This document shows, piece by piece, positions 49,962 through 55,918 of a stretch of DNA of 64,000 bases. The notes below the pieces were generated by a model that saw only the letters and a list, made by a program, of their open reading frames with translations, was not told where the DNA came from and ran no database searches. A program made the translations under genes and the position numbers. Where the stretch lies: NCBI GenBank assembly GCA_965206645.1, contig CBDBKE010000003.1, positions 480,001 through 544,000 of the forward strand. The letters run 5' to 3'. The stretch's first letter is position 1; each line of letters starts with the position of its first letter. Origin of the DNA: Terriglobia bacterium. GTDB lineage: Bacteria; Acidobacteriota; Terriglobia; JAJPHL01; JAPKYU01.

Positions 49962-50684
49962 TCAGCGCAAAGCGTGGACTGCGAAGGAAGCGCGCCGGGC
50001 CGTCCACTCCACCATCGAGCGGAACACGAACAGCCCATCAGTGGAACCCAGGCGCGCATCGCTGGCGCGTTCCGGGTGGGGCATCATCCCCAGGACATTG
50101 CCGGCTTCGTTGACGATCCCGGCGATATTGTGCAACGAGCCATTCGGATTCGCTTCCAGCGTGACGGCGCCCTCCGCGGTCGAGTAGCGGAACGCTACCC
50201 GACCGTTGCGCTCCAGTTCCGCCAGCGCGTCAGGCTCGGCGAAATAATTGCCCTCGGCGTGGGCGATAGGAATACGCAGGACCTGCCCGGGCTCGCAAGT
50301 AAGAGTAAAGGGCAACGAGGTGTTCTCCACACGGAGGTGTACGGGGCGACAAATGAACCGCAGGCTGCGGTTGCGCAGCGTAGCTCCGGGTAGCAGGCCG
50401 GTCTCCAGAAGAATCTGGAAGCCGTTGCAGATGCCCAGCACCAACCCCCCTCCGTCCGCAAAGCGCTTCACCGCCGCCAGCACCGGAGAGAAGCGCGCGA
50501 TGGCGCCCGTCCGCAGGTAGTCGCCGTAGGAGAAGCCGCCGGGCAGGATCACCGCATCGGCGTTTTCCAGATCCTGCGACCGGTGCCAGATGAAGCTCAC
50601 CGGCTGCTGCAACTGCATTCGAATCGCCTGGTAGGCGTCGTCGTCACAGTTGCTGCCTGGAAAGACGACTACCGCGAATTTCAT
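49962..50684 (-). CDS. purQ: FGAM synthase glutaminase subunit PurQ
   Basis: [23 protein letters not shown] and MMPHPER. Confidence 0.97.
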
Positions 50685-51048
50685 GTCCTGTCTCTATGAT
50701 ACCACAGCGGACGACGCCGATCACGACCGAAACTGGCCCGGAAAAGGCGCGCGGACACATGACGTTTGGAGGAGTTGATTATGGAAGGAAAGAGACGCGG
50801 TGCTGAAATTGGTCCCCCCCGCAGAAGGGAAGTCAAGATAGCATAACTTGGAGATAACGGGAAAAATGCGCGGGACGAACTTCAACCCACACTACAACTT
50901 CTCCAATAAATTTCCTGACAGGCTGCTGGTAAACCTTCGGAGCGACCACTGGCTTCCTCTGACATCTCTGCAGGTTGGCCAAATTTGCAAAGCCAAACTC
51001 CAGCAAGCGGTTCTCGTCGCCTGAAGCGGTGCGTGGCTGCGCAGCCTG

Positions 51049-51393
51049 CTAGCTCGGATGCTCCGTCACGGGAGGTCGGCCTGGTCCACGTTTGGCACGG
51101 CGCTTGGGCCGGCCCGGTCCGCGGCGCTTCCGCGGCCTCCCCGGACCGCGACGTTTGGGCGGTCGCCCCGGACCGCGACGTTTGGGCGGTCGCCCCGGAC
51201 CGCGACGTTTGGGCGGTCGCCCCGGACCGCGACCGCGACGTTTTGGGCGACGTTTGGGCGGTCGCCCCGGGCCACGACGCCCCGGCGGGCGGCCGCGGCG
51301 GCCCAGCGCCGCCAGACGTTCCAGCGCGGAAATCGCTTCCTCCAGTTGTCCTTGTTCCCGACGAAGTGATTGTAGGATTCTCTGAACATTCAT
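51049..51393 (-). CDS. small basic protein: N-terminal coiled coil plus eight AT-hook-like GRP repeats
   Basis: MNVQRILQSLRREQGQLEEAISALERL followed by RRGRPP and (RRGPGRPPK)n; has its own promoter. Confidence 0.8.
   Translation of the reverse strand: MNVQRILQSLRREQGQLEEAISALERLAALGRRGRPPGRRGPGRPPKRRPKRRGRGPGRPPKRRGPGRPPKRRGPGRPPKRRGPGRPRKRRGPGRPKRRAKRGPGRPPVTEHPS
51139..51219. repeat. 27-bp exact tandem repeat x3 with degenerate flanking copies
   Basis: CCCCGGACCGCGACGTTTGGGCGGTCG at 51139, 51166 and 51193. Confidence 0.92.
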
Positions 51394-51402
51394 AGGCGGT
51401 GG

Positions 51403-51431
51403 AATTTAAAAGGAAAATTACTGATTGTCAA
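51403..51431 (-). promoter_or_regulatory. sigma70 promoter of the AT-hook gene (near-leaderless)
   Basis: Minus strand TTGACA-17 bp-TAAATT, 9 nt before the ATG; no SD. Confidence 0.7.
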
Positions 51432-51563
51432 CGAAAATGATTGGGTTTCGTGAAAAAATTTACGTTCTTGGATATCAGCAACATATCTCAGCTCAGCGAC
51501 CTGCAACCCGCAAGCGACAGCAGGCAGAAATGAGGTGTGACGAAGCCAGCTGTGCAGGAAAAT

Positions 51564-53018
51564 TCAACTGCGTGGATGCGCGCGTTCGGGCGTAGCCACT
51601 TCCTCCCGTTCCCGCGCGTGCGAGTTGCGGCTTTTCCGCTTGATCTCGATGTTCAGCCGCTTTATTTTCTGATTTAGCGTCGAGAGGGGAATCTGGAAGC
51701 GCTCGGCGGCTTCAGTCTGGCTCCAGTTCGTTTTCTCCAGCATGTCCACAATGACCCGGCGCTCGCACTCGTCCAGGATCTCGAACAAGGAGGCGCCGGG
51801 GCGCTCCTCCACAACCGACAGCAGGCCCGAACCCTTGCCGGCTCGCTCCCGCAGGGATTCCGGCAACAGCAAAGGATCCACTAAGGGCTCCCGGGAAAGC
51901 ACAACCGCCCGTTCGACGGCGTTCTCCAGTTCGCGCACGTTGCCCGGCCAGTGGTAGTCCATCAGGTGCCGCATGGCTGCCGTCGAAAAGCGGCGCAGCG
52001 GTTTCTGGTTTTCCTCGCAATACTTCTTCAGAAAATGGTCCACCAGCAGCGGGATATCCTCTTTTCGTTCGCGCAGTGGCGGCAAAGGCAGCGAGATCAC
52101 GTTCAGACGGTAGTACAGGTCCTCGCGGAACTTGGCTTCGGCCGCCAGCCGGTGCAAGTCCGCGTTGGTGGCGGCAATAATGCGGACGTCCACCTTGACC
52201 AACTCAGTCGAGCCAAGCGGGGTGAACTCGCGCTCCTGAATCACCCGCAACAGCTTGGCCTGAGTTTCCAGGCCGATGGTGCCGATTTCATCGAAGAACA
52301 GGGTGCCTCGGTCGGCTACCTCGAAGAAGCCCTTCTTAGAAGCGACCGCGCTGGTGAAGGCTCCCTTGACATGGCCGAACAGCAGGCTTTCCAGCAGATC
52401 CACCGGCATGCTGCCGGTATTGACCGGCACGAAGGGGCGGTCGGCGCGCGGCGAGTGGGCGTGGATGGCTTTGGCGATCAGCTCCTTGCCGGTCCCGCTT
52501 TCCCCGCTCAGCAAGACCGTCGAGCGGCTGGGTGCAATCTGCTCCACAAGGTCGAGAATCTTCAGCATGGACTCGCCTTTGCCCACGATATTGGGGAGGC
52601 TGTAGCGCTGCTTCAATGCCCGCCGAAGCTGCACGTTTTCCGCTTCCAATCGGCGGGCGCTCACCGTGTTGCGGATTTCCAGCACGAGCTTCTCGTTATC
52701 CCAGGGCTTGGTCAGGTAGTTGCGGGCTCCGGCGCGCATGGCGGCCACCGCGTTCTCCACCGAGGCGTAAGCGGTGATCATCAGCACTGGCAGGTTCGGG
52801 TCCAGACGACGAATCTCTTCGAGCGCCTCGAGGCCGCTGCGGCCGGGCAGAGCCACATCCAGCAGCACCAGGTCGAAGACCCGGCGCCCCAGCAGTTGCA
52901 GGGCAGCTTCGGCGCTTTCGGCCGAGAGCGCCTCGAAACCTTCCAGGCCAAGCAGGGTCTCCAGGCTTTCCCGGACTTCTGCCTCATCATCAACAATCAG
53001 AATTCTTCCTTCAGCCAT
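51564..53018 (-). CDS. sigma54-dependent response regulator (NtrC family)
   Basis: REC domain, GESGTGKE, GAFTSA, FREDLYYRL, WPGNVRELEN and C-terminal HTH. Confidence 0.95.
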   Translation of the reverse strand: MAEGRILIVDDEAEVRESLETLLGLEGFEALSAESAEAALQLLGRRVFDLVLLDVALPGRSGLEALEEIRRLDPNLPVLMITAYASVENAVAAMRAGARNYLTKPWDNEKLVLEIRNTVSARRLEAENVQLRRALKQRYSLPNIVGKGESMLKILDLVEQIAPSRSTVLLSGESGTGKELIAKAIHAHSPRADRPFVPVNTGSMPVDLLESLLFGHVKGAFTSAVASKKGFFEVADRGTLFFDEIGTIGLETQAKLLRVIQEREFTPLGSTELVKVDVRIIAATNADLHRLAAEAKFREDLYYRLNVISLPLPPLRERKEDIPLLVDHFLKKYCEENQKPLRRFSTAAMRHLMDYHWPGNVRELENAVERAVVLSREPLVDPLLLPESLRERAGKGSGLLSVVEERPGASLFEILDECERRVIVDMLEKTNWSQTEAAERFQIPLSTLNQKIKRLNIEIKRKSRNSHAREREEVATPERAHPRS

Positions 53019-53020
53019 GA

Positions 53021-55918
53021 TCAGACGCTCACGGTTTCTGGCAACGTCTCTCTCAACTTGTCCGGCAACCGGGGAAACTCCAGCAAGAAGGCGGTCCCCT
53101 GGCTCTGAGAGCTTTCCACTCGGATGGTGCCGGCATGCTCTTTGACGATCCCGTAGGTGACCGAGAGGCCCAGGCCAACGCCGGAGCGCAAAATATCCCC
53201 GTTGCCGGCGCGGGCGGCCTTGGTGGTGAAGAAGGGATCGTAGATGCGGTGGATGTGCTTCTGGGATATGCCCTGGCCACTATCCGACACCTGCACCTGA
53301 ACTGCACCTTCACTGGTTTCCGTATGGACCCGCAGACGGCCCCCTTCCGGCATGGCGTCTCGGGCGTTCAGGAACAGGTTGAGAAACACCTGCTGGAGCT
53401 TGCCGGCGTTGCCCTGCACGAGGGGCGGCTGCTGGGCGAAGCGGGTTTCCACCTCCACGTGGCTGGTTCTCAGCGGGTGCTCCAACAAGGCTAGTGTGTC
53501 GCGCACCACTCGGTGCAAGTCCACTGGCACCATCTGGGCGCTGCCGGTGCGGGAAAAGTTCAGCAGGTTATTGACGATTTCCGAGGCCCGGAAGGTGGAC
53601 TTGATAATCTTCTCCAGCAGCTTTCCGCGCGCGTCTTCGTTTGGGAGTTGCTTGGAGAGCATCTGCGCGTAGCTGGAGATGACCGTCAGCGGCGTGTTCA
53701 CCTCGTGGGCCACGCCGGCGGCCAGCAGTCCGACCGAGCTCAGCTTTTCCGCCTCGGCCAGTTGCTGCTCCAGTTCCACCCGCTCGCTCACGTCGTCGAA
53801 GATGAGCAGCCGGCCAATCGGTTCGAACCTCTTGCTGACCAAGGGGGCCACCGCGATGTTCAGGGCCCGCTCGCTGCCCGACGGCGTGCGCACCCGGTAC
53901 CGGTACAGGTTATGAATCCCGCTGTCGCTGCGGAAGCGCAGCAGCTCGGCCACCAGTTCCGCGGGAAGGACTTTGTCCACCGGTTGCCCGCGAGTTCGCT
54001 CGCGCGACAGACCGTACATCAGCTCCAGTTGCGTGTTCCAGCTTTCGACCCGGTCGTCCAGATCCAGCACCAGGATGCCTACGCTGAGCGACTCGACGAT
54101 GTTCTCGTTGAACTCCTTCAGGCGTTCGTATTCGGCTGCCTTTCGCTCGAGCCGCCGGTAGAGCCTTGCGTTCTCGACCGCCGCACCTAGATGCCCGGAC
54201 AGCGCCTCCAACAACGCCACGTCCTCGCTGGACAGGAAGTTGTTCTCGGTGGTCTGGCCCAACCCCAGGAATCCCACGATGCGCCCCTGGGCCCGGCAGG
54301 CGAGGTAATAGTGCAGGTCCAGGGTGGCGATCGCGCGGCGCGCCGGCTCCGGCTCGCCTGGCGCTTGCCGCGTGTTCTCAAAAAACAGATAGCCTCGCGC
54401 GGATTCAGCCCGAGCGGCATCCAAGAAGCCCAGGTCGAGGTCTCCGTCCAGTGACAGTCCCCGAGAATGCGCCAGCCGCATTTGGCCCTGCTCATCGTCC
54501 TGCTCACTGGGCTTTTCATCGGGCAGGAAGACGGCTACCCGGTCCACGTTGAGCGTGTGAGATAGCCGATCGGACACCGCCCCCAGCAGGTGCGGCAGAT
54601 CGGTTTCGGTGCTCAGCTCGCGGCCGAAGTCCACCAACGTTTTGCGGTAGTCGTAGCGGTCGCGGTAGAAGTGGCGGTCCAGTCGCTCTTGAATGCGGGC
54701 GCGCAGTGGATGGAACAGAAGGGCGCTGACCACCACCGCGATCACAAACCCTGTTGTTCCCGTGGCAGGCAAGCTGGAGTGGAATACTAGTCCGGCTAGG
54801 GCCACCACCGTAAAGTACATCGATACCAGTGTCAGGGTGGCCAGCGTATAAGCGGCGCCTCGGCGGAACAGAATGTCCACATCCATCAGCCGGTAGCGCA
54901 GAATCGCGTAGCCGAAGGTCAGGGGGATCAACACCAGGGAAAGCGCCGACAGCTTCATCCAACTGGTCGGCACCGCGCCGAACAGGAAGGGCAGGATGAA
55001 AAAAGCGGCAAAGGGGGCAATGCCGAGGGTCACGCCGCGAGTAATCCACTTCATCTGCTGGCGCAGCAGCGGTGTGTGCGCTCGACGATAAGCCTGGTAC
55101 AGCACGGCCGTGCCGCCCAGAAACCACGCCGCCAGGTGGGCGTAGGCGATGCGATCCAGCCACCAGCTCACGGTCCCGATCGGCAAGCCGATTTCCAGCA
55201 CTCGGGATACGACCCCTAGATGGACCAGCAGCAACGCCGCCGCCGGGGCGTAGGCCAGCGGGAGCAGGAACGAACGGCGCTTCAGCCAATCCCGTGGCTC
55301 TGGAAACGCCAGGGCAAAATGGAGAAACAGGGCCGGCTGCAGGAGGGTGGCCACCACGTTTGACCAGTAAATGGTCCAGTCCAAACCGTCCAGCTTGCCG
55401 GTGTAGCGGTAGAAATACAGGACAAACGAGGCCAGGCAGAACAGATAAAAGTGGAGTGCTCGCGCGGCCTGTCCCCGCCGCAGCACGACATACAGCCCGA
55501 TGCTCAAATACAGCAGCGCGACCAACTGCAAGTAGCGCTGAATGGAACTGCTCCTCTGTCGAGGCTGTGGAATGACAGAGGCGACGACGGGGCGCCCGCT
55601 GCGGCTCAGCACATATTCCGCACTGCCCCAGTTGCCCAGCTGGTAGAGCAGCCTTGTGACGCGGGTGGCCCGGGGAATGGGGGTGCTATTGATGCTGTGC
55701 AGTAGGTCGCCTTCCTGAATTCCGGCCCGCGCTGCCGGCCCGCCGGGCTCCACGTACCGGGCAACGACACCTGCCGCGCTGTCCTGCCAGGTCGCCCCGT
55801 CATGGGGAGGGTGGAATTTGCGCTGCTGGTCGAGGTTGATCCAGGCCAACACGCCCAGTGCGATCGTGAGTAATCCCACGAGTATGGACGTGAACCGTAA
55901 TCGGAATTCCCCGATCAA
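53021..55918 (-). CDS. multi-TM sensor histidine kinase (PDZ-TM-GAF-PAS-HisKA-HATPase)
   Basis: GGPAARAGIQEGD (PDZ), several TM helices, AGVAHEVNTPL, NLFLNARDA, DSGQG, DPFFTTK and GVGLGL. Confidence 0.92.
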   Translation of the reverse strand: MIGEFRLRFTSILVGLLTIALGVLAWINLDQQRKFHPPHDGATWQDSAAGVVARYVEPGGPAARAGIQEGDLLHSINSTPIPRATRVTRLLYQLGNWGSAEYVLSRSGRPVVASVIPQPRQRSSSIQRYLQLVALLYLSIGLYVVLRRGQAARALHFYLFCLASFVLYFYRYTGKLDGLDWTIYWSNVVATLLQPALFLHFALAFPEPRDWLKRRSFLLPLAYAPAAALLLVHLGVVSRVLEIGLPIGTVSWWLDRIAYAHLAAWFLGGTAVLYQAYRRAHTPLLRQQMKWITRGVTLGIAPFAAFFILPFLFGAVPTSWMKLSALSLVLIPLTFGYAILRYRLMDVDILFRRGAAYTLATLTLVSMYFTVVALAGLVFHSSLPATGTTGFVIAVVVSALLFHPLRARIQERLDRHFYRDRYDYRKTLVDFGRELSTETDLPHLLGAVSDRLSHTLNVDRVAVFLPDEKPSEQDDEQGQMRLAHSRGLSLDGDLDLGFLDAARAESARGYLFFENTRQAPGEPEPARRAIATLDLHYYLACRAQGRIVGFLGLGQTTENNFLSSEDVALLEALSGHLGAAVENARLYRRLERKAAEYERLKEFNENIVESLSVGILVLDLDDRVESWNTQLELMYGLSRERTRGQPVDKVLPAELVAELLRFRSDSGIHNLYRYRVRTPSGSERALNIAVAPLVSKRFEPIGRLLIFDDVSERVELEQQLAEAEKLSSVGLLAAGVAHEVNTPLTVISSYAQMLSKQLPNEDARGKLLEKIIKSTFRASEIVNNLLNFSRTGSAQMVPVDLHRVVRDTLALLEHPLRTSHVEVETRFAQQPPLVQGNAGKLQQVFLNLFLNARDAMPEGGRLRVHTETSEGAVQVQVSDSGQGISQKHIHRIYDPFFTTKAARAGNGDILRSGVGLGLSVTYGIVKEHAGTIRVESSQSQGTAFLLEFPRLPDKLRETLPETVSV

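Follow-up and report, generated by a model that had tools for sequence, protein, structure and literature searches.

The eukaryotic proteins HMGA1 and HMGA2 are small, disordered and basic, are without an N-terminal helix and carry several GRP hooks flanked by R, K or P. HMGA in enhanceosomes and CarD together with CarG act in a tethering manner. Tandem short basic repeats, the number of which varies between strains, occur in Chlamydia Hc2, in Pseudomonas AlgP and in the tail of mycobacterial HupB, where they are presumed to condense DNA non-specifically or with an AT bias; they are rich in lysine and alanine (KAAK, KPAA, PAKK) and are not GRP hooks. H-NS and Lsr2 combine an N-terminal helical self-association part with a Q/RGR motif that is placed in the minor groove (PMC6936261, in excerpt), and CarD of Myxococcus xanthus carries, besides a protein-interaction part, a run of RGRP hooks for binding AT-rich DNA (PMC2919716 and PMC4374960, both in excerpt). 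This report describes a gene, hereafter the hook gene, in a window of 64,000 nucleotides (nt) from a Terriglobia bacterium (assembly GCA_965206645.1, contig CBDBKE010000003.1, positions 480,001 to 544,000); the window is the whole stretch of DNA that was analysed, and coordinates given without a prefix refer to it. The product of the hook gene, a protein of 114 amino acids (aa) with an N-terminal helix and eight hook-like cores, belongs to an undescribed protein family of the Acidobacteriota, class Terriglobia, which is commonest in Bryobacterales, and represents a lineage-specific expansion in hook number within it.

The usual member of this family is 70-80 aa long (about 75 aa) and has the same helix and two hooks, of which hook 1, RRGRPPxW[LM], is H-NS-like and hook 2, KRRGRPPGSKNK, is HMGA-like (consensus MDVSKILAELKAEREQIEEAIxSLERLARGRGRGPGRPPNWM...PKRRGRPPGSKNK). 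Over its core, hook 2 matches hook 2 of HMGA1, PKRPRGRPKGSKNK (2ezd), residue for residue, a likeness at the level of the motif (E 0.26), and hook 1, as RGRPPxW[LM], can be aligned to the H-NS C-terminal model at its positions 15-33. The protein of the window (P0001) has neither the W[LM] after hook 1 nor the second hook; an array of GPGRPPKRR units replaces both, and the protein therefore represents a divergent sub-branch.

In principle the family thus defined resembles HMGA, H-NS and Lsr2 without belonging to any of these. The HMGA plan of three hooks and an acidic C-terminal tail (PMC4482583, in excerpt) on an otherwise unstructured chain was not found in P0001, in which eight hooks, mainly PGRP, accompany a conserved N-terminal helix and the acidic tail is absent. 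Compared with H-NS and Lsr2, the forms of the family are without a folded C-terminal domain according to AlphaFold2 and have one short helix in place of a two-site oligomerisation domain. Histone_HNS (PF00816), the H-NS oligomerisation domain (PF22470) and the Lsr2 domain (PF11774) were not found on P0001 in a Pfam scan, and no H-NS or Lsr2 above cut-off was found in the window genome. CarD possesses an RNA-polymerase-binding CarD_CdnL_TRCF domain and an acidic region; P0001, a much smaller protein from another phylum, has neither. The Pfam scan revealed no CarD_CdnL_TRCF domain on P0001 and gave weak TPR noise only, namely a TPR_7 match that was rejected as a chance match. From Hc2, AlgP and HupB the family is set apart by its GRP hooks and its helix.

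The 114-aa reading frame proposed in a sequence-only reading of this DNA was confirmed on the minus strand (Table 1). Its product has a mass of 12.9 kDa, a pI of 12.0 and a net charge of +36, which is confined to residues 31-114; it contains 33 R, 23 P, 19 G and 8 K, and its C-terminal end, VTEHPS, has one acidic residue. AlphaFold2, supplied with an alignment of 40 sequences, predicts a single helix for residues 3-29 with a predicted local distance difference test score (pLDDT) of 89-98, the remainder of the protein being unstructured (pLDDT 55-67). A helix followed by a disordered tail is predicted for both the eight-hook and the two-hook forms. With L7 counted as position a, the heptad positions a, d and g are occupied by V3, I6, L7, L10, L17, A20, I21, L24 and L27, in agreement with the N-terminal amphipathic heptad helix claimed earlier. 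The helix is the best-conserved part of the family: in alignment A1, which together with alignment A2 defines the family, I21 is invariant, while M1, I6, L7, L10, E13, A20, E25, R26 and L27 are conserved in at least 90%. Judged from its sequence pattern, the helix may form a coiled coil. A homodimer prediction for two copies of residues 1-45 with alignment A1 gave scores of 0.14 and 0.12 against a mark of 0.42 and is informative neither way. No partner-binding domain was recognised on the protein in Pfam and NCBIfam scans.

Behind the helix, GRP cores are situated at residues 34, 43, 58, 67, 76, 85, 94 and 105. RGRP accounts for one core and PGRP for seven, all flanked by R/K and P, typically as RRGPGRPPKRR, so that every count of the sequence-only reading was reproduced. 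An AT-hook is defined as a peptide of 10-15 residues with a GRP core, K/R flanks and often a proximal P (PMC11354804, in excerpt); a GRP core with K/R flanks and P was found at all eight positions, the canonical R-G-R-P core at one of them. PGRP is plausible as a hook core because a residue other than arginine before G-R is tolerated in H-NS and Lsr2. In the 4.4-Mb genome no other reading frame has more than four (R/K/P)GRP cores, the runners-up being evident GC-rich noise.

Part of the array consists of three letter-identical 27-nt units, and the program TRF reports a period of 27 with 4.5 copies and 92% matches at 51113-51233. Identical units are private to each genome, with three in the window genome and pairs of their own in G001 and G004, from which it follows that the duplications are recent and lineage-specific. 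The recent expansion that had been claimed from exact 27-bp repeats is thereby substantiated. Among genomes of the same genus, GRP cores number eight in the window genome, seven in G002, five in G003 and five in G001 (L028:6000-6330), where a 4-nt deletion in one 27-nt unit leads into an alternative frame. Within the same family ten cores are found in G004 and three in G005, within the sister family three each in G007, G008 and G009, and in more distant families of the class two each in G023 and G031. Relatives thus carry 2, 3, 5, 7, 8 or 10 hooks; in the family of the window every genome has at least three cores, and four of the five intact copies have at least five. Contigs of related strains show in-frame insertions and deletions at 51227-51247 (18 nt lost and 24 nt gained in X11, 18 nt lost in X13, 21 nt lost in X3), all lengths being multiples of three. 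In G003 the peptide GPGRPPKRR is encoded three times with different codons, and in G004 the peptide of the repeat unit is kept despite many synonymous changes. The differing codons for the same peptide and the frame-keeping insertions and deletions show that selection acts on the peptide. The notion of a valency tuned by repeat number holds as a description of the variation in hook number (2-10) among relatives; as an adaptation it would be hypothetical, and the array is frameshifted in four relatives.

Neither Pfam nor NCBIfam holds a model for the 114-aa protein or its typical relatives, all relatives seen are named 'hypothetical protein' in their sources, and a literature search found no description of such proteins in Acidobacteria or of a small bacterial helix-plus-AT-hook family. 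The protein can therefore be regarded as undescribed, as had been supposed. A search with the single 114-aa protein gave 125 relatives, and 58 relatives were found in a representative library of 1.84 billion proteins. The profile of alignment A1 defined the family on a larger scale, with 3124 cluster matches among 8000 scored candidates (E 1e-3), and finds the gene of the window at E 8.4e-15. The ESM Atlas returned acidobacterial hypothetical clusters only (score 0.86). One helix match, P0131 (1492 aa), is a TPR protein and was for this reason regarded as a chance match. P0001 carries the family-defining residues I6, L7, L10, E13, A20, I21, E25, R26 and L27, followed by a G-R-P-P hook, the residues of which (G34, R35, P36, P37) are invariant in alignment A1. 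The N-terminal pattern fits 217 of 278 collected proteins, a sample biased to the top matches. Two GRP cores are present in 197 of these members, one in seven, three in nine, four in two, five in one and eight in one, the last being the protein of the window. GRPPxW occurs in 194 and a GRPxGSKNK-like motif in 189 of the 217 members, and the residue preceding GRP is R in 333 cases and P in 115.

Two further groups of proteins with hooks were noted. A second unnamed family, MMLHLTAYQ...MEKLEKRVAWATRP, has the same RGPGRPPK[KR] array in four to eight copies behind a different N-terminal part (P0005, P0007, P0008, P0010, P0012, P0014, P0015, P0018 and P0022), and in a third (P0026, P0028, P0033 and P0041) a similar helix and hooks are joined to a C-terminal ...ARARMKAYWAxRRK.

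A pattern scan with one genome per species yielded 403 confirmed loci of the helix-plus-hook family, and nearly all of the best 80 carry the titles Bryobacterales, Bryobacteraceae, Solibacteraceae or Terriglobia. In the order to which the window belongs the gene was found in 10 of 11 genomes; the genome in which it was missed is 91% complete and consists of 620 contigs. Two of the best 80 loci lie on metagenome-assembled genomes titled Verrucomicrobiia (L094, a contig of 1.7 kb) and Gammaproteobacteria (L113, 25 kb), which represents either mis-binning or rare transfer outside the Acidobacteriota.

The hook gene is real and its peptide is under purifying selection. For codons 1-32 the ratio of non-synonymous to synonymous change (pN/pS) is 0.16 against G003, 0.28 against G004, 0.38 against G005, 0.56 against G007 and 0.44 against G008. 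A reading of the plus strand was rejected, conservation across families with pN/pS below 1 being seen for the minus-strand frame only; the antisense frames at this locus are open because of the GC-rich repeats. Contigs from two metatranscriptome libraries of one study span 50794-51375 and 50763-51298, which shows that the sequence is present in RNA libraries and is not strict proof of transcription. Positions 51405-51538 are without contig cover in all three RNA-library runs, while a contig of the DNA run spans 51125-51950. This gap fits a separate transcript from the predicted promoter described below; it was not counted as evidence, as it comes from one study and contigs cannot reveal transcript ends.

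On balance, and with modest confidence, we regard the hook protein as probably a multivalent minor-groove binder of short, AT-rich, mainly intergenic patches, the helix of which would associate with itself or contact a partner, and thus as an architectural or nucleoid-associated protein. It is the motifs that suggest DNA binding, AT preference, self-association and a role in the cell. Each G-R-P core, with its R/K and P flanks, would enter the minor groove of a short AT-rich patch in the manner of the hooks of HMGA, H-NS and Lsr2; eight cores would confer multivalent binding of high avidity; and the conserved amphipathic helix would link the molecules to each other or to a partner. In this way the protein could act architecturally or as part of the nucleoid on AT-rich DNA between genes; it would be made from its own putative sigma70-type promoter and a probably leaderless mRNA. 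Possible targets are about 21,500 A/T-only runs of at least five bases in the genome. The proposal is favoured by the selection on the peptide, by the motif-level likeness of the usual hooks to the H-NS core and to HMGA1 hook 2, which is the best PDB match of the family profile, by the helix and disordered tail predicted for both forms, by the HTH and ORC1 domains to which the same array is fused in 3 of 16 longer proteins, by the full-length copies among phage genes, and by the lack of H-NS or Lsr2 above cut-off in this genome.

Several observations weigh against this proposal. In canonical hooks the first arginine of RGR enters the groove, and this residue is missing from the seven PGRP cores. 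Pfam AT_hook (PF02178) does not match P0001 even at E 10, and among 40 family members AT_hook was found in two (E at most 0.1) and Histone_HNS in two, all below cut-off; one relative scores 21.4 bits over RGRGRPPKWL with the H-NS C-terminal model (cut-off 25.6) and 16.4 with AT_hook (cut-off 17.4). A search of the PDB sequences with the family profile gave nothing significant, the best match being the DNA-bound HMGA1 hook 2 (2ezd, PKRpRGRPKGSKNK) at E 0.26. HU/IHF (PF00216) is already represented in the genome, by six full-length matches and a partial one. The family is patchy, being present in 11 of 301 genomes sampled across the phylum, mostly of the class of the window, with 18 candidates scored per genome. 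AT-hooks and arginine-rich tails bind RNA, too (PMC11354804, in excerpt). Finally, the array is frameshifted in four relatives, namely G001, G006 and the metagenome proteins P0002 and P0003, which is due either to assembly errors or to dispensable distal hooks. In G001 the alternative frame holds four further perfect hooks and the conserved C-terminus, and in G006 (same family; L033, minus strand) the shift directly follows hook 1, and the other frame preserves nine perfect cores. As the hooks beyond the shift are still perfect in G001 and G006, these frameshifts are probably assembly errors or very recent events. Gene callers lengthen the frameshifted products to 172-174 aa by way of the open alternative frame.

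An alternative that we consider unlikely is a xenogeneic silencer of the H-NS/Lsr2 type, in which oligomers built by the helix would silence foreign, AT-rich DNA by bridging or coating it. Xenogeneic silencing had been put forward in the sequence-only reading and found no support, since the genome (61.2% GC) is almost without AT-rich islands: 0.2% of its 1-kb windows fall below 50% GC, with a minimum of 47%, which leaves hardly anything to be silenced. The same reading of the protein is favoured by the existence of family copies on phages. In 2.9 million viral contigs 36 loci were confirmed, at five of which the match starts at residue 1; three of these five are full-length two-hook genes matched over residues 1-64, located on IMG/VR contigs of 41-55 kb among phage genes (Table 1). 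The family therefore travels on phages or prophages as well. A tblastn search with one family member against 50,697 phage records gave no match. Homologues on phages or plasmids are known for H-NS and Lsr2 as well. A helix combined with a hook-like motif parallels the architecture of H-NS and Lsr2 (PMC6936261, in excerpt), neither of which was found above cut-off in the window genome, and the usual hook 1, RGRPPxW[LM], resembles the core of the H-NS C-terminal domain, as in the relative scoring 21.4 bits. Against a silencer stand the absence of this W[LM] from the protein of the window, the helix of about 27 residues without the second oligomerisation site of H-NS, and the Pfam models of H-NS and Lsr2, which it does not match.

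We judge it similarly improbable that the R/P/G-rich tail acts on RNA, as an RNA chaperone or a ribosome-associated factor with GRP cores resembling extended AT-hooks. Both AT-hooks and extended AT-hooks have been described to bind RNA (PMC11354804, in excerpt), and a net charge of +36 on a protein with a fully disordered tail would suit such a role. Among 16 longer proteins scanned, one combines the same hook array with an IF2_N domain; however, three others carry the array fused to an XRE-type helix-turn-helix (HTH), a winged-HTH or an ORC1 domain, the phage copies adjoin recombination genes, and the closest likeness of the usual hooks is to the H-NS core and to HMGA1 hook 2 in its DNA-bound form. 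These points speak for DNA.

Still less probable to us is a neutral expansion, according to which only the helix and the first hooks would be of importance, and slippage would have produced the extra units, which drift in number and sometimes out of frame. The three identical units here and the private pairs in G001 and G004, all recent duplications, would be expected from it, as would the frameshifts in the four relatives named above and the two hooks of 197 of the 217 family members. Opposed to it are the units of G003 and G004, which keep the same peptide with divergent codons, the arrays beyond the shifts in G001 and G006, which are still perfect and point to recent events or assembly errors, the frame-keeping insertions and deletions in short-read contigs, and the core numbers maintained throughout the family of the window (at least three everywhere, at least five in four of five intact copies).

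Table 1. Features of the hook gene and its surroundings, and full-length family genes on viral contigs.
Feature	Coordinates	Strand	Remarks
Coding sequence, 114 aa	51049..51393	-	First ATG after in-frame stop
N-terminal amphipathic helix, residues 3-29	51307..51387	-	AlphaFold2 and alignment A1; family-defining part
Disordered basic tail, eight GRP cores, residues 31-108	51070..51303	-	Core spacing 9, 15, 9, 9, 9, 9, 11 residues
Three letter-identical 27-nt units, each encoding GPGRPPKRR	51139..51233	-	Perfect periodicity over 95 nt
Sigma70-type promoter-like site, TTGACA-17 nt-TAAATT	51403..51431	-	10/12 matches
9 nt between -10 hexamer and ATG, no Shine-Dalgarno	51394..51402	-	From the sequence
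Sigma54_activat/Response_reg/HTH_8 regulator	51564-53018	-	Upstream of hook gene, same strand
Histidine kinase	53021-55918	-	Upstream of hook gene, same strand
Spacer between hook gene and purQ, 364 nt	50685-51048		RNA-library contigs covering the hook gene extend to about 50763-50794
Full-length two-hook gene, 63 aa	L119:3001-3192		Beside RusA-like resolvase and exonuclease
Full-length two-hook gene, 63 aa	L120:3001-3189		Beside NinG/Rap endonuclease and transposase
Full-length two-hook gene	L121:3001-3192		Beside endolysin-type peptidase

The promoter-like site ahead of the hook gene is the sole TTGACA-17-TAAATT site in 50600-51700, where shuffled sequences lead to an expectation of 0.2. The short distance to the ATG and the absence of a Shine-Dalgarno sequence predict an mRNA that is leaderless or has a leader of 1-3 nt. 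The geometry is identical in G001-G003 (TTGACA-17-TAAATT/TAATTT-9 nt-ATG) and is found again in G007 and G008 of the sister family as TTGACA-17-TAATTT-9 nt-ATG, the spacer sequence being different; in G023 and G031 the start of the two-hook gene is preceded by an AGGAGG-like site instead. As the geometry is kept across genomes, a leaderless or near-leaderless mRNA, which is probable for the hook gene, constitutes a conserved prediction for the order. Of the near-leaderless gene with a strong TTGACA promoter that had been claimed, the site, its distance of 9 nt to the ATG and the conservation of both hold; 'strong' is a reading of the sequence pattern. The 170-nt spacer upstream of the gene (51394-51563) has 44% GC, which places it in the lowest 0.14% of the 200-bp windows of the genome, and contains A/T runs of 9, 7 and 10, the last being one of 161 A/T runs of at least 10 in the genome. 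With this composition and these runs the spacer is a candidate site for binding by the product of the gene itself.

The gene order histidine kinase, sigma54 activator, hook gene, purQ, purL, purF and lepB is kept in G001-G004 and in part in G006; purS is situated elsewhere (G000:C3:768062-768292). At the loci of family f2 the neighbours of the hook gene differ. For Bryobacterales 40 loci were scanned, the first of 65 with both neighbours; an APC amino-acid permease is situated upstream of the gene in 30 of them, and the downstream genes are varied. No sigma54-type promoter was found in 51394-51563, and the window contains 29 matches with at most two mismatches against 34.6 expected. That the hook gene follows the sigma54 two-component pair is correct in so far as the pair adjoins it upstream, but the synteny is restricted to the family of the window; given the differing neighbours outside this family and the lack of a sigma54-type promoter, the gene stands alone and the sigma54 link is one of local synteny. 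The last of the alternatives, a tethering cofactor whose helix would bind a transcription factor, RNA polymerase or the sigma54 activator while the hooks anchor this partner at AT-rich DNA, agrees with the helix being the best-conserved part of the family, with the order histidine kinase, sigma54 activator and hook gene in five relatives (G001-G004, partial in G006) and with CarD, in which HMGA-type hooks are combined with a protein-binding domain (PMC2919716 and PMC4374960, both in excerpt), and is nevertheless very unlikely in view of the differing neighbours, the missing sigma54-type promoter and the failure to recognise a partner-binding domain.

Downstream of the hook gene, the spacer to purQ contains two small open reading frames without a Pfam match. 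A search of 50500-51700 against Rfam (E up to 1) gave no match, no terminator-like site was found in 50600-51700, and the 376-nt stretch downstream of the stop codon shows no unusual fold (z -0.49).

In soils, the Acidobacteriota belong to the most abundant bacteria. To our knowledge nothing is known of how they organise or silence their DNA, and a literature search found no paper on DNA organisation or silencing in this phylum. What is new here is not the DNA-binding motif, which is known, but the large, undescribed bacterial family that carries it, with an unusual natural series of hook numbers; the mechanism proposed would not astonish a specialist. The family is large, with thousands of sequence clusters, and its members are tiny, easily synthesised and unite the motifs of HMGA and H-NS in the simplest arrangement. 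The natural versions with 2, 3, 5, 7, 8 and 10 hooks provide a series for relating hook number to affinity, AT selectivity and DNA condensation. A wider picture, which we hold to be rather doubtful, is that of a further, independent family of bacterial chromatin proteins, the smallest so far, in which an oligomerising helix would be combined with eukaryote-type AT-hooks as the acidobacterial counterpart of H-NS, Lsr2, MvaT and Rok, the valency would be set between 2 and 10 through duplication of a nine-residue hook, and phage copies would compete with or mimic the host protein. If the hook protein is indeed a nucleoid protein, a new family of bacterial chromatin proteins would be at hand; should it turn out to bind RNA or some partner, it would still represent a common, so far unannotated gene that deserves a name.

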